From Micromonosporaceae bacterium (GTDB taxonomy: Bacteria; Actinomycetota; Actinomycetes; Mycobacteriales; Micromonosporaceae): DNA of 64,000 bases. The position numbers and the translations under genes are program-made. The stretch is taken from contig DASUXA010000040.1 of assembly GCA_036378155.1 (NCBI GenBank), positions 25,800-89,799 of the forward strand. The letters run 5' to 3'. The notes beneath the pieces were generated by a model, which was given only the letters and a program-made list of their open reading frames with translations, had not been told where the DNA came from and ran no database searches. Below are positions 7,357 through 63,993 of this stretch, piece by piece (within the stretch, counting starts at the first letter, position 1; every line of letters starts with the position of its first letter).

Positions 7357-8766
7357 CTACTCGGTGTGCGGCGCGCCGCCGCTTGCTGTGCCGGGTCCCA
7401 CCCACACCGTCTTGAGGTTGCAGAACTCGCGGATGCCGTGCGCGGACAGTTCCCGTCCGTACCCGGAGTTCTTCACCCCGCCGAACGGCAGCGACGGGTA
7501 CGACGTGGTCATCCCGTTCACGAACACCATGCCGGCGTCCAGATCGTCGACGAAGCGGCGCTGCTCGTCCGGATCGGTGGTCCAGGCGTTGGAGCCGAGT
7601 CCGAAGTCGCAGTCGTTGGCGATCGCGATCGCCTCGTCGTACGACGACACCCGGTACAGCCCGGCGACCGGCCCGAACACCTCCTCGTGCCACATGCGCA
7701 TGTCCGGAGTCAGGTCCGCGACCACCGTCGGCGGGTACCACCAGCCCGCCCGGTCCGGCACCCGTCCCCCGCACAGCACCCGGGCGCCCTTGGCGACCGC
7801 GTCGGCGACCTGCTCGTGTACCCCGTCGCGACCGGATTCCAAGGCGAGCGGCCCGACGTCGGTACCGTCGGCGGTCGGGTCACCGACCGACAGCCGCGAC
7901 ATCCTCGCCACGAACGCCTCGGCGAACGCGTCGTACACGTCGGCGTGCACGATGAACCGCTTCGCGGCGATACACGACTGACCGTTGTTCTGGCAGCGCG
8001 CCACGGTCGCCACGTCCGCCGCCGCCTCGACGTCCGCCGACGGCATCACCACGAACGGGTCGCTGCCGCCCAGTTCCAGGACGGTCTTCTTCAACTCCCG
8101 TCCGGCGATCGCCGCCACCGCGCGACCCGCCTGCTCGCTGCCGGTCAGCGTCGCGGCCCGTACCCGGCGGTCGGTGAGCACCCGCTCGACCTTGTCCGAA
8201 CCGATCAGCAGGGTCTGGAACGCGCCGGACGGGAAGCCCACGCGGCGGAACAGGTCCTCCAGGTACAGCGCCGTCTGCGGCACGTTCGACGCGTGCTTGA
8301 GCAGCCCCACGTTGCCCGCCATCAGAGCGGGCGCGGCGAACCGCATCGCCTGCCAGAGCGGGAAGTTCCACGGCATGACCGCGAGCACCGGACCGAGCGG
8401 CTGGTACCGGGCGTAGGCGCGGACCGCGCCCACGGCGCCCGCGTCGGACGGTTCGTCGGCCAGGAACGACTCGGCGTGCTCGGCGTAGTACCGGCAGGCG
8501 TTGGCGCACTTGCTCACCTCCGCCTTCGCCGACGCCAACGTCTTGCCCATCTCCGTGGTCATCAGCGCGGCCAGGTCGTCACGGTCGCCGTCGAGGAGGT
8601 CCGCGGCGCGGCGCATCCACTCGCCGCGCTGGGCGAACGAGGTGTCGCGCAGCGCCCGGAACCCGTCGACCGCTCGGCTGATGCAGGCGTCGACCTGCTC
8701 GTCCGGCATCGCGTCGAAGGTCTTGACCACCTGCCCGGTCGCCGGGTTGGTCGTCGTGATCGCCAT
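7357..8766 (-). CDS. NAD(P)+-dependent aldehyde dehydrogenase (succinate-semialdehyde dehydrogenase-like)
   Basis: 469-aa ORF with ALDH signatures VLELGGSDPF (catalytic Glu region) and NNGQSCIAAKRF (catalytic Cys). Confidence 0.9.
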   Translation of the reverse strand: MAITTTNPATGQVVKTFDAMPDEQVDACISRAVDGFRALRDTSFAQRGEWMRRAADLLDGDRDDLAALMTTEMGKTLASAKAEVSKCANACRYYAEHAESFLADEPSDAGAVGAVRAYARYQPLGPVLAVMPWNFPLWQAMRFAAPALMAGNVGLLKHASNVPQTALYLEDLFRRVGFPSGAFQTLLIGSDKVERVLTDRRVRAATLTGSEQAGRAVAAIAGRELKKTVLELGGSDPFVVMPSADVEAAADVATVARCQNNGQSCIAAKRFIVHADVYDAFAEAFVARMSRLSVGDPTADGTDVGPLALESGRDGVHEQVADAVAKGARVLCGGRVPDRAGWWYPPTVVADLTPDMRMWHEEVFGPVAGLYRVSSYDEAIAIANDCDFGLGSNAWTTDPDEQRRFVDDLDAGMVFVNGMTTSYPSLPFGGVKNSGYGRELSAHGIREFCNLKTVWVGPGTASGGAPHTE

Positions 8767-8873
8767 CGTGCCCTCCGTCCTGCCGCGCTCGCGCCGACGC
8801 CGTCGAGGTTATGCGAGATCCATCCACGGCTACCCGGGCGGGCGGGCGGACAAACCGGCGCTGGTGGCAGGCT

Positions 8874-16033: not shown

Positions 16034-16987
16034 TCAGCGCGCGCCGCGCCCGCCGCCGATCGAGAACCGCACGACGGTACCGCCGTCGCCGGAACTGATC
16101 GACAGGGCGTCGCACGCGTGGCGGGCGAGCCACAACCCCATGCCGCCGTCCGCGCCGGGCGACGGCGGCAGGTACCCGGCGAGCGGGTCGATCGACGCGC
16201 GACCGGCGTCGCTCACCTCGCCCACCACCCGGTCGTCGACGAACCACAACGCGACGCGTGCCGGAACCGTGCCGTGGCGCAGGCAGTTCGTCGCCAGTTC
16301 GGTCACGGTGAGCGCCAGGTCGTCGACCTGCCGAGCCGGCAGCACCCGGGTCGCTTCGGCGACCGCGCGCACCCGGTCGCGCAGCGCGGCGAGATCGCCC
16401 GTCACCGGTACCGTCAGCGTCGGCTCGCCGCTCGTCGGCGGCACCGGATCGGCGATCTCGTCCAGCAGCGCCGCCGGGTCGAGGTAGGCGCCGCTGGCAC
16501 GGTGCTGCCCGTCCCACACCGTCGGGTGGGTGCGCAGCGCGTCGCCCAGCACCGTCGGGGGCAGCTGCCGGGTGGAGTAGGGGCAGACGATCCAGGCGGG
16601 GGCGTGCGCGAACACGCGGTTCAGCGCCGACTCGTATCGGGTCCAGGTGGCGTGCTCGTCCGGCTCGCCGAACACCACTTCGCCGACCACCCGCGTGTAC
16701 CGGACGCCCCGCGCGGCGAACTCGTCCAGTTGCCGCTGCCAGCCGGCGACGGTCCGGGCGGGGCGCGTGTACCAGTCGGCGTTGTCGACGAACACGACCC
16801 GGTCGGCGTCGTCGCCCAACTCGTCGCGCAGCAGCTCGATGTGCGCCTTGGTGGTCGCCGCCACCGCGCCGTGCCCGTCGGCGAGCGCGCCGCGCAGGAA
16901 CGGTGCGGTGAGAGCGACGAACCGCTCGTCCGAGTCGTAGAAGACCGCGTCGTGGCAGAAACTATCGCCTTCGGTCACCGTCATCAA
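16034..16987 (-). CDS. MEDS-domain / HATPase (RsbW-type anti-sigma kinase-like) fusion protein
   Basis: The N-terminal HDAVFYDSDERFV...FVDNADWY matches the MEDS pattern. The C-terminal LTVTELATNCLRHG ... GGMGLWLARHACD matches the N-box and G2-box of HATPase_c_2. Confidence 0.8.
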   Translation of the reverse strand: MMTVTEGDSFCHDAVFYDSDERFVALTAPFLRGALADGHGAVAATTKAHIELLRDELGDDADRVVFVDNADWYTRPARTVAGWQRQLDEFAARGVRYTRVVGEVVFGEPDEHATWTRYESALNRVFAHAPAWIVCPYSTRQLPPTVLGDALRTHPTVWDGQHRASGAYLDPAALLDEIADPVPPTSGEPTLTVPVTGDLAALRDRVRAVAEATRVLPARQVDDLALTVTELATNCLRHGTVPARVALWFVDDRVVGEVSDAGRASIDPLAGYLPPSPGADGGMGLWLARHACDALSISSGDGGTVVRFSIGGGRGAR

Positions 16988-41492: not shown

Positions 41493-42734
41493 ATGGCAGG
41501 AACCACAGGTGACCGCCGGGTCGTGATCGTGGGCGGCGGATACACCGGAATGATGTGCGCGATCCGGCTGGCGCGCCGTACCCGCCGGCACGGCGTCGAG
41601 GTCGTCCTGGTCAACCCGTCCGACCGGTTCACCGAGCGGCTGCGCATGCACCAGATCGCAACCGGGCAGACGCTGTCCGACCGCCGGATCCCGGCGCTGC
41701 TCGAGGGTACCGGCGTCCAGTTCGTCCAGGGTCGGGCGAGCCGCATCGACCCGGATCAGCGCGACGTGTGGGTGGACACCGACCGTGGTCCGAGGGTGCT
41801 GCGGTACCACACGCTGGTGTACGCGATCGGCAGCGTCGCCGACAGCCGCACCGTGCCCGGGGTCGAGACGCACGCGTACACACTGGACGACCCGCACGCC
41901 GCGACCCGGCTGGCGAACCGGCTGGCGGAACTGGACGGCGGCACGGTCGCGGTGTGCGGCGGCGGGCTGACCGGGGTCGAGTCGGCCGCCGAGATCGCCG
42001 ACAGCCACCCACGGGTGCGGGTGCTGCTGCTGACCCGCGACGAACCCGGCTCCATGATGGGCGACCGGGCACGCGGGTACCTGCGCCGGTCGCTGGCCCG
42101 GCTGGGCGTCGAGGTGCGCGCCGGGGTCGAGGTCGTCAAGGTGCTGCCCGGCGCGCCCCAGCCGACCGACGGTCAACCGGTCGTGCTCGAGCTCGCCGAC
42201 GGCGAATCGGTACCGGTCGACGCCTGCCTGTGGACCACCGGTTTCGTGGCGTCGCCGCTGGCCGAGCGGTCGGGTCTGGCAGTGGACCCGCGCGGTCGCG
42301 TGGTGGTCGACGAGACGCTGGCGTCGGTGTCGCACCCGTCGGTGTACGCGATCGGCGACGCGGCGGCGGTGCGGCAGCCGTGGGGCGAGATCCACGGCAC
42401 CTGCCAGAGCGGCATCCCGATGGCGATCCACGCCGCCGACACCATCGCCCGCCGGCTGCGGGACCGTCCGGCGAAGCCGTTCCGGTTCGGGTACGTCCAC
42501 CAGCCGGTCAGCCTGGGTCGGCACGACGCGGTCATCCAGTTCACCCGACCCGACGACTCGCCGCGCCGGTGGTACCTGACCGGACGCGCGGCGGTCGCCT
42601 ACAAGGAGGCGGTCAGCAGCAGCCCGCCCTGGGCGTACCGGCTGTCCGCGCGGGTCACCGTGCCCGCCGCGTTCGTCGCGCTGCGCGGCGGTCGCGCCAC
42701 CCGGCGACCGGTCAGCGCCGCCGCAGGCCGGTGA
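41493..42734 (+). CDS. FAD-dependent pyridine nucleotide-disulfide oxidoreductase (NDH-2-like)
   Basis: ATG 41493 is preceded by GAGGAGG. Dinucleotide folds VVIVGGGYTGMM and VAVCGGGLTGVE, and a C-terminal AIGDAA. Confidence 0.85.
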   Translation: MAGTTGDRRVVIVGGGYTGMMCAIRLARRTRRHGVEVVLVNPSDRFTERLRMHQIATGQTLSDRRIPALLEGTGVQFVQGRASRIDPDQRDVWVDTDRGPRVLRYHTLVYAIGSVADSRTVPGVETHAYTLDDPHAATRLANRLAELDGGTVAVCGGGLTGVESAAEIADSHPRVRVLLLTRDEPGSMMGDRARGYLRRSLARLGVEVRAGVEVVKVLPGAPQPTDGQPVVLELADGESVPVDACLWTTGFVASPLAERSGLAVDPRGRVVVDETLASVSHPSVYAIGDAAAVRQPWGEIHGTCQSGIPMAIHAADTIARRLRDRPAKPFRFGYVHQPVSLGRHDAVIQFTRPDDSPRRWYLTGRAAVAYKEAVSSSPPWAYRLSARVTVPAAFVALRGGRATRRPVSAAAGR

Positions 42735-43587
42735 GCTTGTCCGGATTGTTGATCAGGTGGATGGCGTGGATCACGCCATCCACCACGTACAACGTCGCCG
42801 CGGCGGCGGGCTGGTCGGCGGAGTACATGACGATGGCCGGCCCGCCGTTGACGTCGGTGATCTCGAAGCTCGGCTGCTCCGGCATGCGCCCGGCGAAGGT
42901 GACCAGCGCGCGGGCGACGAGGTCCGGACCGTAGATCGGCTTGCGCGGCGCGGGCGCCAGACCGCCGCCGTCGCTGACCATGACCACGTCGGGCGCCAGT
43001 ACCCGCATCAGCCCCGCCAGGTCGCCGCCCGAGGCAGCCGCCAGGAACTGCTGGGTGACGGCGATGCGGGTCGCCCGGTCGGTGTCGTACCGCAGGCGAC
43101 GCTGCTCGACGTGCTCGCGGGCGCGGCGCGCGGTCTGACGTACCGACTCCTCGCTGCGACCGACGATGTCGGCGATTTCCGCGTACGAGTACGCGAACGC
43201 CTCGCGCAGCACGAACACCGCCCGTTCCAGGGGCGACAACGACTCCAGTACCAGCAGCATCGCGGTCGACACCGTGTCCGCCATGGTCACGTCCTCGGCG
43301 ACGTCGGGGCTGGTCAGCATCGGCTCCGGCAGCCACGACCCGACGTACGCCTCGCGGCGCGCCTGCGCGCTGCGCAACCGGTCGATCGCCAGCCGGGTGA
43401 CGACCCGGACCAGGTACGCCGCCGGATCGTCGATGGTCGAGCGGTCCGCGCCGGCCCAGCGCAGCCACGCGTCCTGGACCACGTCCTCGGCGTCGCCGAC
43501 CCGACCGAGCACCCGGTACGCCACCCCGTACAGCCGACCCCGGTGCTCCTCGAACACCCGCGTCGCCTCGGCCTCGTCGATGGTCAC
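42712..43587 (-). CDS. sigJ: ECF sigma factor, SigJ-type, with SnoaL-like C-terminal extension
   Basis: Blocks RLYGVAYRVLGRVGDAEDVVQDAWLRW and REAYVGSWLPEP. About 120 aa form an extra C-terminal domain. Confidence 0.9.
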   Translation of the reverse strand: MTIDEAEATRVFEEHRGRLYGVAYRVLGRVGDAEDVVQDAWLRWAGADRSTIDDPAAYLVRVVTRLAIDRLRSAQARREAYVGSWLPEPMLTSPDVAEDVTMADTVSTAMLLVLESLSPLERAVFVLREAFAYSYAEIADIVGRSEESVRQTARRAREHVEQRRLRYDTDRATRIAVTQQFLAAASGGDLAGLMRVLAPDVVMVSDGGGLAPAPRKPIYGPDLVARALVTFAGRMPEQPSFEITDVNGGPAIVMYSADQPAAAATLYVVDGVIHAIHLINNPDKLTGLRRR

Positions 43588-51225: not shown

Positions 51226-52470
51226 TCAGTCCGCGAAGTCCACGGTGATCAGGTCGGCGTACCGCATCATCGTGTCGAAGGCGTCGTCCTTGGACGTCCC
51301 GGTGGTACCGAGGAACCCGAGGATGGTGTTGCCGTGCGGCGGGCGCTTGACGACGTCGCCCGGTCGCGCGGTGATCTTGAGAAGGAAGGTCCGGTCCGAC
51401 TCGCTGACCTCGGCGGGTACGTGCACCTTCGCGATCGTCCCCGCGTCGCAGATCAGGCACATCGACGTGGTGTGGGTGCCGGTGGGTTGGAAATGGCGGA
51501 CCCGGGGGCGTACCCCACGGGCGATGTCCACCACCGCGGCGATCGGGTCGTGGTCGGCGGTCAGCCGCGCGATCATGTCGAGCCCGCCGCCGCCGACCCG
51601 CGCGGCGATCTCCAGCAGGTGCGGCTTGCCGTCGTGGAAGCGCACCTCGGCGTGTCCCACGCTGCGCCGCAGCCCCTGCGCCCGCATCCCGGCGGCGACC
51701 ACCTCGTGCACCGCGGCGAGATCCTCCGGGCTCATCGACGTCGGTGCGTGGTGCACGTCGTCGTCGAAGGTGTCGCGCTCGACGGTGATCCGGTCCACGA
51801 CCGAGCCGAGGTACACCTCGTCGTCCCAGATGACGACCTCCATCAGGTACTCGGCGCCGTCCAGGAACGACTCCACCAGCAGTCCGCTCGGTCCGAGGTC
51901 GACACCGTCCGGCTCGGACCTCGCCCAGAACATGTCGCGGCTGCCCGCCTCCGCCTGGGCGTACCGTTCGGCCAGTTCCGCCGGGGATTCGACCTTGAAC
52001 ACGAAGTTGCTGCCGGCGCCGTGCGTCGGCTTGACGATCACCGGGTAGCCGAACTCCTCGGCCGCGGCGTTCGCCTCGGCGAGACTGTGGGTCAGCCGGT
52101 ACCGGGGCGAGCGAGCGCCCGCCCGCTCGTACGCCTGCCGCATCAGGTACTTGTTGCGGCAGTTGACCGCCGTTTCCACGCCGATGCCGGGCAGACCGAG
52201 AGCCTCGGCGACCGCCGCCACGGTGATCACCGACGACTCGGAGAAGGTCAGTACCCCGTCGAACGCCTCGACCTGGTGCCACTGCTTGGCGGTGGCGATG
52301 ATCTCGTCGATGTGCCGCGAGCCCGCCACCCGGTACCGTTCGGCGGGCCAGAAGTCCGGCTCGCCTTCGCCGTTGAGCACGTACAGCGTCGCGCCCAGAG
52401 CCTCCACCTGTTCATACCGGGACTTGTAGTACGACAGGTACTGACAGGTCTCGATGGCGAGCAGCTTCAC
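51226..52470 (-). CDS. ATP-grasp ligase (L-amino-acid-ligase-like)
   Basis: 414-aa ORF with [30 protein letters not shown] and [12 protein letters not shown]. Confidence 0.9.
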
Positions 52471-54439: not shown

Positions 54440-55747
54440 TCAGTCGTCCTCTCCCTGGATGGACACGGCGTCGACGCGCGCCGTCGTCGTGGCGGCGCGG
54501 TGGGCGAGCAGGTCGTCCACCATCTCGCCGGCGCGTACCGCGAGCACGCTGATCAGCGAGTCCGCGATGCCGTGACTGTCCTCGTTGACACCCTGCAGGT
54601 AGCAGCCGGCGGTGACGGAGGCCGGCGTGATCATGCGGTAGTGGCGGTCCACCGCGATGTCGCGCACCCCCACCGCCTCGGCGGTCTGCCGGATCAGCCA
54701 CGGCTTGTCCTGCTCGAAACCCGTGCCGAGGAGCACCATGTCGGCGCGTACCTCGCTGGTCGTGCCGCGCATCCGGTCGCGCACCGTCAGCACCACGTCG
54801 TCGCCGTCCATCCGGGTGGCGAGCACATCGGTCAGGGTGTGCATGACGATCCGCTCGCTGCCGGTCAGCCGGTCCTGGTACATCTGCCGGTACAGCGCGT
54901 CGAGCATGCCCGGCGCGAGCCCGGCGTAGTTGGTGCGGTGCATCTCCGCCAGCACCTGGGCGCGGACCTGCGGCGAGCCGGCGTAGAACTGGTCGACGAA
55001 GGACGGGTAGTACAGCTCGTTGGTGAACGCGCTGCTCTCGTAGCCGCGCAGCCCGGCGGATCTCATGATCATCCGGCATTCGGCGGCGGGGAACCGCTGG
55101 TACACCGTCCACAGCATCTCGGCGGCGCTCTGCGCGCCGCCGACGACCACGAGCCGGCGTACCGCCGCCGGGTCGATCAACTCCACGCGGCTGGTGAACT
55201 CGGTGCTGTGCACGACCCGCTCGCCGGGCAGGTTCCGGAACTCGGCGGGTACGGCGGGGGTGCGACCGATGCCGATGACCACGTCCCGGCAGCGCACGAC
55301 CTCGCCGGTGTCGAACCGGACCCGCCAGCCGTCCACGGTACCGTCGTCGCGCGACGAGACGGGCTCGACCGCGGTGACGGTTCGTCCGTACTCCACCTGC
55401 ACCCGCTCCAGCGACTTGGCGACCCACTGCAGGTACGCGGACACCTCGAGGCGGAACGGGGTGGCGGAGCCGAGGTTGATGAACTCGTCGAGCCGGCGGA
55501 CCGAGTGCAGGTAGTTGATGAACGAGTACTTACTGCGCGGATTGCGCAGCGTCGCGAGGTCCTTCAGGAAGCTGACCTGGCTCTGCGTCCACGGCAACAG
55601 CATGCCGCGCTGCCAGGCGATGTCGTCGTGCCGTTCCACTACGAGGGTCTCGTCGGCGAGCTGCGGAGCCATCTCCTCGGCCGCCACGGCGAAGGCGAGG
55701 TTGGCGGGACCGGCGCCTACCGCGACCACTGACATCTGTCTTTCCAT
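54440..55747 (-). CDS. flavin-dependent lysine/ornithine N-hydroxylase (SidA/IucD/PvdA family)
   Basis: Blocks VGAGPANL, FLKDLATLRNPRSKYSF, VVGGAQSAAE and LGTGF. Confidence 0.9.
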   Translation of the reverse strand: MERQMSVVAVGAGPANLAFAVAAEEMAPQLADETLVVERHDDIAWQRGMLLPWTQSQVSFLKDLATLRNPRSKYSFINYLHSVRRLDEFINLGSATPFRLEVSAYLQWVAKSLERVQVEYGRTVTAVEPVSSRDDGTVDGWRVRFDTGEVVRCRDVVIGIGRTPAVPAEFRNLPGERVVHSTEFTSRVELIDPAAVRRLVVVGGAQSAAEMLWTVYQRFPAAECRMIMRSAGLRGYESSAFTNELYYPSFVDQFYAGSPQVRAQVLAEMHRTNYAGLAPGMLDALYRQMYQDRLTGSERIVMHTLTDVLATRMDGDDVVLTVRDRMRGTTSEVRADMVLLGTGFEQDKPWLIRQTAEAVGVRDIAVDRHYRMITPASVTAGCYLQGVNEDSHGIADSLISVLAVRAGEMVDDLLAHRAATTTARVDAVSIQGEDD

Positions 55748-55756
55748 CGTGCGCCC

Positions 55757-56881
55757 TCATCCCCACGCTGTGTCGGCGCCCTGGACCGGGCAGGTCAGCA
55801 CCGGCGGGCTTGCGAAAAACGACGGCGACTGCCCGGACATCGCGGCGCCCAACGCGGTCGCGGCGAGCCGGCTCGACGCCAGGACACTCTTCGCGGCGCC
55901 CCCCGCACCACCGGTGAAGCTGTACACCCCGGGCATGCCCGCGACCGCGCGCAGCCGCAGCCCGCCGTCGGCGGCGAAACACTCCGTCGCGGCGGTCACC
56001 CGTCGCGGCGGCGGCAGCGGTCCGGCGAGCCCGAGGACGGTACGGGCGACATCGGACACCCGCTCGACGCAGACCGGGTCGGCAGCGATGTCGCCCGGCG
56101 CGACACCCCACGCCGACGTGGCGACCCCGAGCAGCACCGCGCCGTCGCCGTAGCTGCGCCCGTACAGCGTGGACAGGTCGTCGACGAGACAGCCGAGGTC
56201 GGGGCGTGCCAGCGGGTACACCCCGTACTGGATGCGCCGGGTGCGCAGCGGCACAGGCAGCAGCCTGCCGGTCCACGCGCCGGCGGCGACGACCACCGCG
56301 TCGTGCCGCCGGACGGTACCGCCGACCAGCGTCACCGCCGGTCCCGCGTCCGACGCCGGTACCGCCTGCACCGCCGCGACCGGTTCGTCGCGCACCCGGG
56401 CACCCAGGTCGGCGGCGCGCGCGGCGGCGTACCGGCGCATCGCGTCCGGATCGACGTACCCGGCGTACCGCTCGACCACGGCGACCGTGCCGTCCGGCCG
56501 GGGTCCTAGGTCGAGGGTCCGGGCGAGCTCGGCGGCGGGTACCACCCGCGCCGAACCGGCGACCGCCGCGTCCAGCACCGCGAGCTGGGGCTGGGGGTCG
56601 GCGTCCGGGCGCAGGAAGTAGCTGGAGCGCGTCTCGCGGTACCCGCAGGCGCGCGCCAGCATCGGGTCGCCGCGCAGCTCGGCGAGGCTGGCGGCAGCCA
56701 ACCGGCACTGGTCCAGGTCGGTCTCGAAGCCCCGGACGAACCCTCCGGACGCCCCGGTGGCGTCCATGCCCGACGTCGCCGGGTCCCGGTACAGGTCGAC
56801 GTGCGCGCCCTGTTCGGCGAGGCGCAGCGCGAGCATCGAGCCGGCGACGCCGCCGCCGACGACGGCTATCCGGGTGCCCAT
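55757..56881 (-). CDS. FAD-dependent oxidoreductase (D-amino-acid-oxidase family)
   Basis: Started at ATG 56881 (MGTRIAVVGGGVAGSMLALRLAEQG). GTG 56935 is an alternative start. Confidence 0.85.
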   Translation of the reverse strand: MGTRIAVVGGGVAGSMLALRLAEQGAHVDLYRDPATSGMDATGASGGFVRGFETDLDQCRLAAASLAELRGDPMLARACGYRETRSSYFLRPDADPQPQLAVLDAAVAGSARVVPAAELARTLDLGPRPDGTVAVVERYAGYVDPDAMRRYAAARAADLGARVRDEPVAAVQAVPASDAGPAVTLVGGTVRRHDAVVVAAGAWTGRLLPVPLRTRRIQYGVYPLARPDLGCLVDDLSTLYGRSYGDGAVLLGVATSAWGVAPGDIAADPVCVERVSDVARTVLGLAGPLPPPRRVTAATECFAADGGLRLRAVAGMPGVYSFTGGAGGAAKSVLASSRLAATALGAAMSGQSPSFFASPPVLTCPVQGADTAWG

Positions 56882-57134
56882 CAAGTCAGGTTCGGCCGGG
56901 AGGGGGACGCCGGCGCGCCTTTGCGCGCGGACCACCGGTCGAACCCACGCATGATCGACTCCGCTGGACGATGACGAACGCTGTCCTCTTCCACTGTGGA
57001 GGGGAGGATATGGTCGGCTCGGAGGGCGGGCAAGGGTTCACCGTCGCCCTCGACGCGCGTAGATGCCTCGGACGAGCGGTGTGACCTCGACCACCTCCAC
57101 CGATCGGTTGGTTCTCAGCTTTCGCTCAGGCACC

Positions 57135-58773: not shown

Positions 58774-60096
58774 TCAGCGGGCGTGCGCGGGCGAGCGGGT
58801 CGCGGCGGCGGCGCGGACGAATTCGGCGCGGGGATGCTGCAGTTCGGTGAGCGACACGACGTCGTGCGGGAAGACCGCGTCGACCGCCCAGTCCGCCGCC
58901 ACCCGCACCTGCCGGCTGACCGTCGGCAACTGCCACCAGTGGTACGTCCGGTGCATCAGCCACGCCGGCAACCCGCACGCCTTGAACTGGTAGATCTGGG
59001 CGGTGCCCTGGAACCGGCCCAGGCTGGCGACCGACCCGAGGTACCGGTGCCGGTAGGTGCGCAACCGGTGCCCGCGCACCTCGGCGAGCAGGTTGTCCGC
59101 CAGCCGGCGAGCCTGGCGCATCGCGTGCTGGGCGGTCGGGCCGACCAGCGCGTCCGGGTTGTCGCTGGTGAGGTCCGGTACCGCCGCGCAGTCCCCCGCG
59201 GTCCACGCCGCCGGGGTGTCGACGACCCGCAGGTACGCGTCGGCGAGCAACCGACCCCGGCTGTCGCGCGGCAGGTCGGTCTCCGCCAGCATCGGGTTCG
59301 GTCGTACCCCGGCGGTCCAGATCAGGGTGTCGGCGTCGAACGACTCCCCCGGGTCCAGTTCCACGTGACCGTCGACGCAGGAGGTGACGCGGGTGCGCAG
59401 GCGTACGTCGACGCCGCGCGCGGCGAGCAGGTCGACGGTGTACCGGGCGAGGTCCGCGCCGACCTCGGGCATGATCCGCTCGGTCGCCTCGACCAGCACC
59501 CACCTGAGGTCCGTCGGTTCCAGCTCGCCGAACAGGTCGACCACCCGGCGGCTCATGTCGGACAGCTCGCCGAGCGCCTCGATGCCGGCATACCCGCCGC
59601 CGACCACGACGAAGGTCAGCGCGCGGCGTCGGGCGTGCGGGTTCGTGGTACCGGCGGCGAACGAGAGCCGTTCGAGGACGTGGTCGCGCAGGTACACCGC
59701 CTCGCCGAGGGACCGGAAGCTGATGCCGACCTCGGCGAGCCCCGGGATCGGCAGGGTACGGGCGACCGATCCGGGGCTGACGACCACGTGGTCGTAGCTG
59801 ATCTCCCGGTACTCGTCGCCGGCGAGCCGTACCGTCGCCCGGCGCGCGGCATGACTGATCCCGACCACCTCGCCACCGATGATCTGCGCGTGCGGCAGCA
59901 CCCGGCGCAGCGGTACCGCCACGTGCCGGGGCTCCACGTTCCCGGCCGCCGTCTCGGCGAGCAGCGGCTGGTAGGTCATGTGCGTGCGGGGATCGACCAG
60001 CACCACGTCGAGTTCCCCCGGCCGCATCCGGCGGTACAGCCGCAGCGCCGTGTACAGCCCGACGTATCCCCCGCCGATGATCAGTACCCGTGGCAT
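58774..60096 (-). CDS. ndh: type II NADH dehydrogenase (NDH-2)
   Basis: Blocks VLIIGGGYVGLY, FVVVGGGYAGIE and WTAGDCA. Confidence 0.9.
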   Translation of the reverse strand: MPRVLIIGGGYVGLYTALRLYRRMRPGELDVVLVDPRTHMTYQPLLAETAAGNVEPRHVAVPLRRVLPHAQIIGGEVVGISHAARRATVRLAGDEYREISYDHVVVSPGSVARTLPIPGLAEVGISFRSLGEAVYLRDHVLERLSFAAGTTNPHARRRALTFVVVGGGYAGIEALGELSDMSRRVVDLFGELEPTDLRWVLVEATERIMPEVGADLARYTVDLLAARGVDVRLRTRVTSCVDGHVELDPGESFDADTLIWTAGVRPNPMLAETDLPRDSRGRLLADAYLRVVDTPAAWTAGDCAAVPDLTSDNPDALVGPTAQHAMRQARRLADNLLAEVRGHRLRTYRHRYLGSVASLGRFQGTAQIYQFKACGLPAWLMHRTYHWWQLPTVSRQVRVAADWAVDAVFPHDVVSLTELQHPRAEFVRAAAATRSPAHAR

Positions 60097-60208
60097 CGGC
60101 TCGCCCTACCCGCGAACGGGACGCGGAAACCTGACGCGACCAGGCATGCGGCGCGGGGCTCACGGGTACCGCCGGAGTGTGCGCCCAGCGGAACCGACCC
60201 GCCGAGCC

Positions 60209-60536: not shown

Positions 60537-61523
60537 TCAGCTGAGCGCGGGGTACAGCGCCGCGGCGAACACGAGGTAGAGCAGCCCGGCGAGGGACAGC
60601 CGACGGACCGTCAACCGGCCGCGGCGCAGCAGCAGCCACAGGTACCCGATGGACGCCATGGTGACCAGCCCCGAGATCACCAGGACGGTGTCGAACCGCC
60701 ACGGGGTGAACAGCAGACCCAGCCCGCTCGGTACGGTCGCCTGGATCATCATCGCGCCCGACACGTTCGCCAGCGCCAACCTGGTCTTGCCCTGGCGCAC
60801 CCAGATGATCGCGTTCATCGTCTCGGGCAGTTCGGTCGCGATCGGGGACAGCAGCAGCGCGGTGACCGCGGCGGGCAGCCCCAGCATCGGGCCGATGGCG
60901 TCCAACTGGCGGACGAACAGTTGCGACGCCAGGAAGATCACCGCGAGGGTACCGAGGGTCTGCGCCACCACCGCCCAGCCGGCGGGTTGGGCGCGACGAC
61001 GCTGCAGCAGCAGCGGTTCGAGGTCCTCCTGCTCACCGGGGTCGCCGCCGCCGCGCAGCTCGCGCCAGAAGTACACCCCGTACACCGCGAAGAACACCAG
61101 CCCGAGCCAGGGTTTGACGGCGAACGCGACCAGCCCGAGGGCGACCTTGACGACGAACACCGCCATGAACCAGGACTGGTCGCGGGCGAGTTTGCGGGTG
61201 TCGCCGAGTTCCGCGGCGCCGGTGCGCCGACGCGCCAGCAGCATCCAGCCGACCACGCCGTACGCGATCGTGGCGAGCACCAGCGGTCCGCCCATGGCGG
61301 CGCCGACGCCGAGGTCCTTCTCGGACGGCGAGGAGCCGAACACCACGGCGACGAAGGTCACGACGCTCTCCGGCAGCGCGGTGCCGAACGCGGCGAGGAT
61401 GGTACCGACCGCGAGCGGCCCGACGTTGAGCCGCCGTCCGAGCCACTCCACCGCGTTGACGAACCACTCGCACGAGAAGTAGATGGCGACAGCCGCCACG
61501 ATCAACAGGATGACGTGAGTCAC
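60537..61523 (-). CDS. CaCA-family (sodium/calcium exchanger-type) cation antiporter
   Basis: Started at GTG 61523, 7 nt after GGAGGG. The two alpha-repeat signatures are GTALPE and ATELPE. About 10 TM. Confidence 0.85.
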   Translation of the reverse strand: MTHVILLIVAAVAIYFSCEWFVNAVEWLGRRLNVGPLAVGTILAAFGTALPESVVTFVAVVFGSSPSEKDLGVGAAMGGPLVLATIAYGVVGWMLLARRRTGAAELGDTRKLARDQSWFMAVFVVKVALGLVAFAVKPWLGLVFFAVYGVYFWRELRGGGDPGEQEDLEPLLLQRRRAQPAGWAVVAQTLGTLAVIFLASQLFVRQLDAIGPMLGLPAAVTALLLSPIATELPETMNAIIWVRQGKTRLALANVSGAMMIQATVPSGLGLLFTPWRFDTVLVISGLVTMASIGYLWLLLRRGRLTVRRLSLAGLLYLVFAAALYPALS

Positions 61524-61698
61524 TCGGGTCCCTCCGCGCCGCGGGTCGAGGCGCGGAGGGGACCTCGACCGCGGCGCATGTAGCGCCGACACATGGTCGA
61601 AGGTCTCGTCCGCCCACCATCGCGGCGGGCCCGGCCACCGGGAGCGCGAGCTCCAGCATGTCGACGACCGGCGGGAGGACTACTCCCCTTCAGCGACC
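61524..61698 (-). ncRNA. candidate yybP-ykoY-type (Mn2+) riboswitch plus SD-sequestering expression platform
   Basis: The minus-strand RNA reads GGUCGCUGAAGGGGAGUAGUCC...GGACGAGACCUUCGACC (plus-strand coordinates 61698 down to 61595). It carries the conserved GGGGAGUAG and AGACC elements flanked by complementary GAAGG/CCUUC. Downstream there is an 11-bp hairpin, CCCUCCGCGCC / GGCGCGGAGGG, whose 3' arm contains the SD. Confidence 0.5.
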
Positions 61699-61809: not shown

Positions 61810-61999
61810 TACGGCGGGCGCGGCATAGCCGAACCGACGCGGGCCATCGGGTACCCGGTGCCGAGGCGCGCCAAACGTGAGATGGGTACGCGTCGGATGC
61901 GTCAGCCGGGGCGCAGGGGGTAAACGCCGATCGACGGACCGGGCAGACGACGCCGTGCCGCGGTAGTGTGCCGGGACCAGGCGAGACGCTGGATGGCTG

Positions 62000-62734
62000 A
62001 TGAACGAGATCCACTGTCGGGTCGAGACCACGCTTCCGGTCGCGGTGGTGCGACTGGAGGGGGTACTCGGACTGGACAGCGCGTCCACGGTTCGTACGGC
62101 GCTGCTCAAGCGCCTCGCCGAACACCCGGACGCGTTGATCGTCGACCTGTCCCGACTGACGGTCGCCGACGAGTCCGCGTTGTCGGTGTTCGTCGCCGTG
62201 GCGCGACAGGCGGCGATCTGGCCCGGCATCGCGATGGCGTTGTGCGGGGTACCGGAACGGTTCGCCGCGATCGCGTCGCGTCTGGTACCGGTCTGCGACG
62301 ACCCTGGGCAGGCGCGCGACGTCCTGCGCCGCGTCCCGGTCCCGCTGCAGCGGGACCGGCGGCTGCTGCCGGTGACCGGGTCGGCGCGGCGCGCCCGCGA
62401 CCTGGCGACCGAGGCATGTCTGGACTGGGGGCTGTCCGACCTGGTGATCCCGAGTTGCGTGGTGGCCGGTGAACTGGTCGCCAACGCCGTCCAGCACGCC
62501 GGCACGCCGATGACGCTCAGTTTCCGCCGACTGCCCCGGTACCTGCACATCGCGGTGCGCGACGGCTCGGACCGTCCGGCGCTGCGCTGCGAGACGCACC
62601 CACTGGCACTGGGCGGCCGGGGGCTGATGATCGTCGACGCGACGTCGCGATGCTGGGGGTGCTCGCCGGCGACCGGCGGCAAGGTGGTCTGGGCGACGCT
62701 GGACGTCGGCGATCCGTGGCACGGCGACCGGTAA
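62000..62734 (+). CDS. STAS (anti-sigma antagonist-like) / HATPase (RsbW-type anti-sigma kinase-like) fusion protein
   Basis: The N-terminal VAVVRLEGVLGLDSASTVRTALL...IVDLSRLTVADESALSVFV fits STAS. The C-terminal VAGELVANAVQHA...GGRGLMIVDA fits HATPase_c_2. Confidence 0.8.
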   Translation: MNEIHCRVETTLPVAVVRLEGVLGLDSASTVRTALLKRLAEHPDALIVDLSRLTVADESALSVFVAVARQAAIWPGIAMALCGVPERFAAIASRLVPVCDDPGQARDVLRRVPVPLQRDRRLLPVTGSARRARDLATEACLDWGLSDLVIPSCVVAGELVANAVQHAGTPMTLSFRRLPRYLHIAVRDGSDRPALRCETHPLALGGRGLMIVDATSRCWGCSPATGGKVVWATLDVGDPWHGDR

Positions 62735-62805: not shown

Positions 62806-63993
62806 CTACGTGTCCACCGGACGCAGCACGGGACCCCGCGCGTCGGCGGACAGCAGGCGCCACACTCCGGCGCGGCGCAGCAGGTCGGCGACCACGGGTC
62901 GGGTGCGTACCACCGCGAACCGCGCGCCCGCGTGGCGGGCGGTGCGGCACCCGGCGACCAGCGCCGCGATGCCGGCCGCGTCGATCAGCGGTACCTGGGC
63001 GAAGTCGGCGCGCACCCAGCGGGGTCGCTCGGCCATCGCGGTACGGCACAGCGAGGCGCGCAGGTCGGCGGCGTTGTCGCGGTCGACCTCGCCGTGCACG
63101 GTCACGGTCACCCCGCCCGGCTCGCGGCCGATCTCGATCCGGGTGCCCAGCTCGTCGACGACCGGGTCGCCGAGCCCCGGCCAAACCGGGTCGATGTCGC
63201 TGGTCATCGCGGCTCTCAGCCACGCGAGCGCCTGGGACAGCAGCCGCGACACGTGCATCTGCGAGATGCCGATCTCGGCGGCGATCTGCGACTGTGTCAT
63301 GTTGCCGTAGAACCGCATGGTCATGATGCGCTGTTCGCGTGCCGGTAGCCGGGGCAGCAGGGTCGCGAGGGTGACCTGGTCGTCCATCCGCTCCAACGCC
63401 GGGTCCCGCCCGCCGAGCATGGCGCCCAGGTCGGCGGCGTCCTCCTCGTGCGAGACCGGGGCGTCCAGCGACACCGGCTGGTACGCCCGAGCCAGGTCCA
63501 GCCCTTCGAGCACCTCCTCGGCGTCCAGCCGGAGGTGGGCGGCGAGGTCGTCGACCGTGGGCGAGCGGCCCAACTGGTGCGTCAGGTGCTCGTTGGCGCG
63601 CGTCATCTCCAGCCGCAGTTCCTGCAGCCGGCGCGGTACCCGGACCCGCCAGCCCCGGTCGCGGAAGTGCTTCTTCAACTCGCCGCGGATGGTGGGCGCG
63701 GCGTAGTGGCTGAACGGACCGCGGGTCTGGTCGTACCCGTCGACCGCCTTGATCAGCCCGACGGTGGCGACCTGGACGAGGTCTTCGAACGCCTCGCCGC
63801 GACCCTGGTAGTGGCGCGCCATCCGCACCGCGTACGGCAGCCCGGCCTCGATCACCTGCTCGCGCAGCCGGGCCCGGCACACGTTCCCGTCGGGCAGCGT
63901 GACGATCCGGGCGAACAACGCGGCCACGGCATCGTCGAGGTCGTTGGCGACATTTGCGGGACTCATGGGGTTCGGCGGTGACGCCCCGGTCAC
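62806..63993 (-). CDS. SigB/SigF-type sigma-70 family factor with C-terminal STAS-like domain
   Basis: Region 2 is FEDLVQVATVGLIKAVDGYD and region 4 is RIMTMRFYGNMTQSQIAAEIGISQMHVSRLL. About 125 extra C-terminal residues (VTVHGEVDRDNAADL...ADFAQVPLIDAAGIAAL...VVADLLRRAGV) follow. Confidence 0.85.
   Translation of the reverse strand: MTGASPPNPMSPANVANDLDDAVAALFARIVTLPDGNVCRARLREQVIEAGLPYAVRMARHYQGRGEAFEDLVQVATVGLIKAVDGYDQTRGPFSHYAAPTIRGELKKHFRDRGWRVRVPRRLQELRLEMTRANEHLTHQLGRSPTVDDLAAHLRLDAEEVLEGLDLARAYQPVSLDAPVSHEEDAADLGAMLGGRDPALERMDDQVTLATLLPRLPAREQRIMTMRFYGNMTQSQIAAEIGISQMHVSRLLSQALAWLRAAMTSDIDPVWPGLGDPVVDELGTRIEIGREPGGVTVTVHGEVDRDNAADLRASLCRTAMAERPRWVRADFAQVPLIDAAGIAALVAGCRTARHAGARFAVVRTRPVVADLLRRAGVWRLLSADARGPVLRPVDT

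Follow-up and report, generated by a model that had tools for sequence, protein, structure and literature searches.

Classical partner switching, as represented by SpoIIAA/SpoIIAB/sigma-F and RsbV/RsbW/sigma-B in Bacillus and by RsfA/RsfB/UsfX/SigF in mycobacteria, brings together a SigB/F-type sigma factor, a STAS domain and an RsbW-like GHKL domain. The locus described here contains the same three domain types, with the same STAS fold, in a different arrangement. Antagonists such as SpoIIAA and RsbV stand alone and act in trans, whereas in the window (the whole 64-kb stretch of DNA that was analysed) the sigma factor and the anti-sigma factor each carry a fused STAS domain of their own, and neither of these domains has a phosphorylatable serine. 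A regulatory domain appended in cis at the C-terminus of a sigma factor is also found in the ECF41/42 factors with a SnoaL-like extension, although these factors are of another sigma class (group 4), differ in the domain that is appended and have no separate anti-sigma partner. The window itself encodes an ECF-type sigma factor with regions 2 and 4 and a SnoaL_2 extension (42712-43587, minus strand), which resembles the ECF41/42-like class.

The closest described system is the sigma-SsdA/SipA pair (AMIS_54240/AMIS_54230) of Actinoplanes missouriensis, reported by Tezuka et al. (Nat Commun 2023; PMC10733313). Sigma-SsdA is a protein of 379 aa in which a sigma-B/F/G domain is followed by a C-terminal STAS domain, and SipA, encoded by the adjacent gene, is a protein of 243 aa with an N-terminal STAS domain followed by an RsbW-like domain. 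In two-hybrid analysis the C-terminal RsbW-like domain of SipA interacted with the SsdA STAS domain and not with the sigma domain alone; the RsbW-like domain also binds SipA's own STAS domain, and in an AlphaFold-Multimer model its two STAS partners occupy opposite faces (PMC10733313). Deletion of sipA renders SsdA hyperactive and the resulting phenotype is suppressed by ssdA mutations, while the substitution L372P in the SsdA STAS domain abolishes sigma function and purified SsdA transcribes in vitro from promoters of the form GnTT-n14-CGGGTA (PMC10733313). Our search of the literature turned up no later paper that takes SsdA/SipA further.

Here we report that the locus at the edge of the window is a divergent member of this sigma-SsdA/SipA kind, a design that had thus already been characterised in 2023. 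The first-pass annotation of this DNA had described a sigma factor covalently fused to a STAS domain and knew of no characterised example; the A. missouriensis pair is such an example, and it is homologous across both window proteins. The window sigma factor is 49% identical to A. missouriensis SsdA over 368 aa spanning both domains (E 7e-101), and its SipA-like neighbour is 45% identical to SipA (E 3e-53). The likeness extends to the architecture of each protein, with a SigB/F/G domain and a C-terminal STAS domain bearing D-A-A-G in one polypeptide, and an N-terminal STAS domain joined to an RsbW-like domain in the other. It also extends to the layout of the genes, which are convergent in both organisms and separated by 72 bp in A. 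missouriensis and by 71 bp here, and a promoter consensus matching that of SsdA occurs in the window. The window pair differs from that of A. missouriensis in its limited identity (only 49% and 45%) and its position in a separate clade of uncultured actinomycetes, in the absence of CheR-PAS and CheB genes downstream of the sipA-like gene, in having glutamate instead of proline at the Ser58 position of the SipA-like STAS domain, and in the absence of an evident sporangium context within the window.

The ssdA-like gene (62806..63993, minus strand) was identified from its open reading frame, from Pfam and NCBIfam matches and by homology. Its product has 395 aa if translation begins at the GTG at 63993, or 386 aa if it begins at the ATG at 63966; the frame remains open up to the edge of the window, 7 nt beyond the 5' end of the sigma ORF. 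Numbered on the 395-aa form, residues 48-116 match Sigma70_r2 (PF04542; 63646..63852, minus strand; E 8.6e-17), residues 127-187 match Sigma70_r3 (PF04539; 63433..63615, minus strand; E 1.3e-13) and residues 213-260 match Sigma70_r4 (PF04545; 63214..63357, minus strand; E 2e-15). The N-terminal part as a whole is assigned to the SigB/F/G group by NCBIfam TIGR02980, with 258.6 bits against a cut-off of 234.35. Residues 291-378 match the STAS domain (PF01740; 62860..63123, minus strand) with an E-value of 5.6e-11 and 42.6 bits against a cut-off of 22.6, and the protein also matches STAS_2 with 38.9 bits against a cut-off of 29.2. A complete sigma factor therefore continues, uninterrupted by a stop codon, into a STAS domain, as the first-pass annotation had proposed, and the three peptides that it had quoted are all present in the translation. 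Region 4 and the STAS domain are joined by a linker (63124..63213, minus strand) in which the Asp and Trp of a D..P.W.G motif are near-invariant across the family despite low model confidence over this segment.

Structural modelling supports the assignment of the C-terminal domain. In the AlphaFold2 model of the full-length protein the pLDDT over the STAS domain is 94-97, and the STAS part modelled alone gives a pLDDT of 88.7 and elements in the order beta-beta-alpha-beta-alpha-beta-alpha. Because the full-length model has a low pTM (0.41, with the arrangement of the domains undefined) and retrieved sigma factors only, the Foldseek search was repeated on the STAS part alone. The best matches in the PDB were then SpoIIAA (1th8_B, E 1e-7), RsbV (6m36, TM 0.91, rmsd 1.2), TM1442 and mycobacterial RsfB (8ih8), so that the STAS-like fold suggested at the C-terminus is borne out by a Pfam match above cut-off, by the model and by structural similarity to SpoIIAA, RsbV and RsfB.

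Fusions of this kind call for care, as a stop codon lost through a sequencing or assembly error, or a frameshift, could merge a sigma factor gene with a separate antagonist gene. Among the database relatives one protein (P0032) does look frameshifted within its STAS part. Against an artefact stand the recurrence of the continuous architecture in independent sequences, a GC3 of 0.93 over the whole sigma ORF in a window of 72% G+C, and the conserved residues of the linker. Both domain types are present in approximately 110 of the best 120 database relatives, and in a scan of one genome per species, queried with an alignment of the STAS part alone, the sigma factor and the STAS domain lie in a single frame at all 80 loci, complete chromosomes among them. 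We consider the probability that the fusion is artefactual to be next to nil, and the continuous reading frame proposed by the first-pass annotation stands.

The same set of sequences supplies the survey of the architecture that the first-pass annotation had called for. The 80 loci, at most of which a convergent sipA lies immediately downstream, belong to Actinoplanes, Paractinoplanes, Phytohabitans, Krasilnikovia, Catenuloplanes, Couchioplanes, Asanoa, Micromonospora, Symbioplanes, Polymorphospora, Plantactinospora, Pilimelia, Pseudosporangium and Nucisporomicrobium, together with two unclassified MAGs. It is to proteins from metagenomes and from these two MAGs that the window sigma factor is closest (60-68% identity), and a neighbour-joining tree of the sigma domains, calculated without support values, places it at the base of this metagenome/MAG clade, apart from the Micromonosporaceae clade that contains SsdA. 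No named organism has a protein more than 60% identical to the Ndh-2-like protein of the window, the best named matches (57-60%) being from Planosporangium, Frankia/Pseudofrankia, Geodermatophilus and Pseudonocardia, and the DNA is therefore attributed to an uncultured actinomycete that lacks close relatives in culture. Many of the sigma-STAS proteins of the window's clade (clade A; P0003, P0005, P0006, P0008, P0009 and others) end in a conserved tail of the form ..[AV][AQ][HQ]TTLP[VRSCY], which is absent from the window protein and from the Micromonosporaceae SsdA proteins.

A subclade of SigF-like sigma factors that lack a STAS domain (P0033, P0035, P0036, P0038, P0040 and P0041) nests within the sigma-STAS clade of the window in the same type of tree, again one without support values. 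Two of these proteins, P0036 and P0038, are 66-68% identical in the sigma domain and were considered as split versions of the fusion, which was ruled out since their genes lie in an unrelated context, and they are better regarded as paralogues. The genes of the STAS-less factors are accompanied by MalT-like and SCP2 genes, and this different context together with the nested position suggests that the STAS domain was lost secondarily after a duplication.

At the position of SpoIIAA Ser58 and RsbV Ser56 the sigma-borne STAS domain has an alanine. The codon at 62977..62979 (minus strand) reads gcg, as the first-pass annotation had stated, and the gapless alignment with SpoIIAA sets "fmDSSGlg" (1th8_B, 1auz_A) over "plIDAAGia", so that the D-S-S/T-G of canonical antagonists is absent from this domain and D-A-A-G is found in its place. 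In the full-length AlphaFold2 model the alanine occupies the N-terminal end of helix alpha-2, the position taken by Ser58 in SpoIIAA. This is a property of the family, with alanine at the Ser58 position in 105 of 112 sigma-STAS proteins, SsdA included, and V-P-L-x-D-A-A-G recurring as a family-wide motif of the sigma STAS domain. Since alanine takes the place of the serine, we infer that the tethered domain cannot be phosphorylated. The phosphorylation site is not discussed in Tezuka et al. (PMC10733313), supplements included.

The first-pass annotation had mentioned a neighbouring kinase in passing, and an RsbW-like gene does adjoin the sigma factor gene; what that mention lacked is the STAS-RsbW fusion architecture of its product. 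This sipA-like gene (62000..62734, plus strand), recognised by Pfam and by homology, is convergent with the sigma gene and encodes an anti-sigma factor of 244 aa with an N-terminal STAS domain (62021..62278, plus strand; Pfam) and a C-terminal RsbW-like domain (HATPase_c_2, PF13581; 62381..62650, plus strand), the latter scoring 27.4 bits, exactly at the Pfam cut-off. A search of PDB sequences with the C-terminal domain yielded no usable alignment. Across 86 family members the RsbW-like domain keeps an N-box (E/N/H), a G2-like G-R-G-L and the sequence GGKVVW, the first two being invariant, while the G1 box of the window protein is degenerate, reading V-R-D-G-S rather than DxGxG. Alignment of the N-terminal domain with RsfB and 4hyl places Glu58 (codon 62171-62173) at the Ser58-equivalent position; this departs from the norm of the SipA family, in which 76 of 86 members have proline there. 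The loss of the phosphorylatable serine from both fused STAS domains, that of the sigma factor and that of SipA, argues that neither is under phosphorylation control. Elsewhere in the window a MEDS and HATPase_c_2 protein (16034-16987, minus strand) represents an RsbA-type anti-sigma regulatory protein, another component of the partner-switching type.

We put the probability that the window locus encodes a sigma/anti-sigma pair working in the manner of sigma-SsdA/SipA at roughly three in four, reasoning by analogy with the A. missouriensis proteins. The window gene would then encode a SigB/F-class sigma factor that is functional and ends in a non-phosphorylatable STAS domain, on which the RsbW-like domain of the SipA-like protein would dock instead of on regions 2-4, and this docking would keep the sigma factor inactive. 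A signal would then free the sigma factor from the SipA-like protein, and the freed factor could guide RNA polymerase to stress and redox genes whose promoters have the form GnTT-N14-15-(C)GGGTA, the Ndh-2-like gene, 2.7 kb away in the window, being a candidate target. Binding mode, inhibition and regulon are all inferred here from the homologous pair, and the binding mode is an extrapolation because the window proteins are only 45-49% identical to their characterised counterparts and belong to a clade other than that of the Micromonosporaceae proteins. The expectation in the first-pass annotation that the fusion would entail an unusual mode of regulation is realised in sigma-SsdA/SipA, where, unlike in classical modules, the anti-sigma factor contacts the STAS domain and not the sigma domain.

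One mode that the first-pass annotation had suggested, a self-protecting sigma factor, fares less well. It would have the tethered, non-phosphorylatable STAS domain act as a permanent cis antagonist that captures the anti-sigma kinase and leaves the sigma factor constitutively resistant to inhibition. The domain does have the fold of the antagonists SpoIIAA and RsbV. Moreover, Ser-to-Ala forms of SpoIIAA still bind SpoIIAB and escape inactivation by phosphorylation, which counts in favour of this reading, as does the binding of SipA to the STAS domain in the homologue (PMC10733313). In the homologous system, however, SipA shows no binding to the sigma domain, the sigma factor becomes hyperactive once sipA is deleted, and ssdA mutations act as suppressors of the sipA phenotype (PMC10733313). 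Binding at the STAS domain is thus inhibitory rather than protective, in contrast to the binding of stand-alone antagonists, and the tethered domain is best understood as a handle for inhibition. Permanent self-protection in cis therefore seems to us very improbable.

How an SsdA/SipA-type pair might be released is suggested by the genes that surround it at related loci. In approximately 45 of the 80 genome loci, that of A. missouriensis among them, sipA is followed by a gene for a CheR-PAS methyltransferase, after which there usually come a CheB-like methylesterase gene and a gene for a second SipA paralogue (STAS/HATPase_c_2). These neighbours recur in both clades (for example L001 8003-10980, L004, and L085 4783-7702), although in the clade of the window (L004, L085/L086) cheR and cheB lie upstream of the ssdA-like gene instead. 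They are not mentioned in the 2023 paper (PMC10733313), and the CheR-PAS/CheB module could be the missing signal input. In addition, the closest relatives of the window locus carry a gene for a free, single-domain STAS protein beside the sipA-like gene and divergent from it (L003 2601-2981, L004 5246-5575 and L085 10076-10468, the last on the plus strand), and the copy in L085, the one that was translated, has the canonical phosphorylatable D-S-T-G.

A free D-S-T-G protein in the relatives suggests a partner-switching variant with a free phosphorylatable antagonist, in which the unphosphorylated protein would displace the SipA-like protein and free the sigma factor, and the SipA-like protein would phosphorylate the free antagonist only. 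The N-box and the G2-like G-R-G-L retained in the SipA family are consistent with such a cycle. On the other hand, a free single-domain STAS gene is found neither beside the pair nor elsewhere in the 64-kb window, SipA has a degenerate G1 box and no known kinase activity, and the AlphaFold-Multimer model (PMC10733313), in which the RsbW-like domain is contacted by one STAS domain on each of two opposite faces, argues against simple competition. We consider the full variant, with phosphorylation of the free protein, unlikely for the window pair. For the clade of the window as a whole one may tentatively imagine, while regarding it as rather doubtful, that the non-phosphorylatable sigma STAS domain serves as a permanent docking handle, that a free D-S-T-G STAS protein competes for the SipA-like protein and so frees the sigma factor, and that CheR-PAS/CheB provides the input.

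The sigma-SsdA/SipA-type reading of the locus also directs attention to promoters. Downstream of the sipA-like gene lie genes for a Na/Ca exchanger (60537-61592), the Ndh-2-like protein (58774-60096) and an MFS transporter; unlike in Micromonospora, there is no ctaD between or near the window pair. A candidate SigB/F/SsdA-type promoter, GTTT-N14-CGGGTA, at 60107..60130 (minus strand) ends 10 nt before the ATG of the Ndh-2-like gene, so that a transcript from this site is predicted to be nearly leaderless. In the relatives L087 and L088 its -35 and -10 elements are kept while the spacer has diverged, a pattern that amounts to a phylogenetic footprint. A second candidate SigB/F-type promoter, GTTT-N15-CGGGTA, lies between the sipA-like gene and the Na/Ca-exchanger gene, upstream of the latter (61852..61876, minus strand), and a third site, also GTTT-N15-CGGGTA, lies at 8831-8855 (minus strand), where it precedes an aldehyde dehydrogenase gene (7357-8766) by 65 nt. 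In the sipA mutant of A. missouriensis an aldehyde dehydrogenase, AMIS_50190, is raised 2.6-fold (PMC10733313).

All three GTTT-N14/15-CGGGTA sites in the window are upstream of genes and in the correct orientation, and their number exceeds the shuffled expectation, with two of the N15 form found where 0.02 were expected. As this consensus is common to many SigB/F-type sigma factors, it cannot tie the sites to this particular factor, and we regard them only tentatively as candidate targets of the ssdA-like sigma factor. Autoregulation was considered and rejected, since a SigB/F-type site is found upstream of only one of 81 ssdA-like genes. Elsewhere in the window, a lysine/ornithine N-monooxygenase (54440-55747), an ATP-grasp ligase (51226-52470) and an FAD oxidoreductase (55757-56935), all on the minus strand, are grouped in what resembles a portion of a small biosynthetic cluster of siderophore-like or amino-acid-derived type.

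On a practical level, the labels "sigma-B factor" and "hypothetical protein" for these two genes should be replaced by SsdA-like and SipA-like. The sigma-STAS design deviates from textbook partner switching, and our comparison adds to the account in PMC10733313 the family-wide D-A-A-G, the separate clade of the window, and the free STAS and CheR-PAS/CheB genes at related loci, which offer a free phosphorylatable STAS protein and a CheR-PAS/CheB pair as candidate inputs. Since the pair had been known only from sporangium-forming Micromonosporaceae and one Nonomuraea strain (PMC10733313), the clade of the window widens its known range. If the rather doubtful reading with a competing free STAS protein and a CheR-PAS/CheB input were correct, such a rewired partner switch would carry SsdA/SipA beyond the sporangium-forming Micromonosporaceae and make of it a general switch for redox and stress responses in uncultured actinomycetes of the soil.
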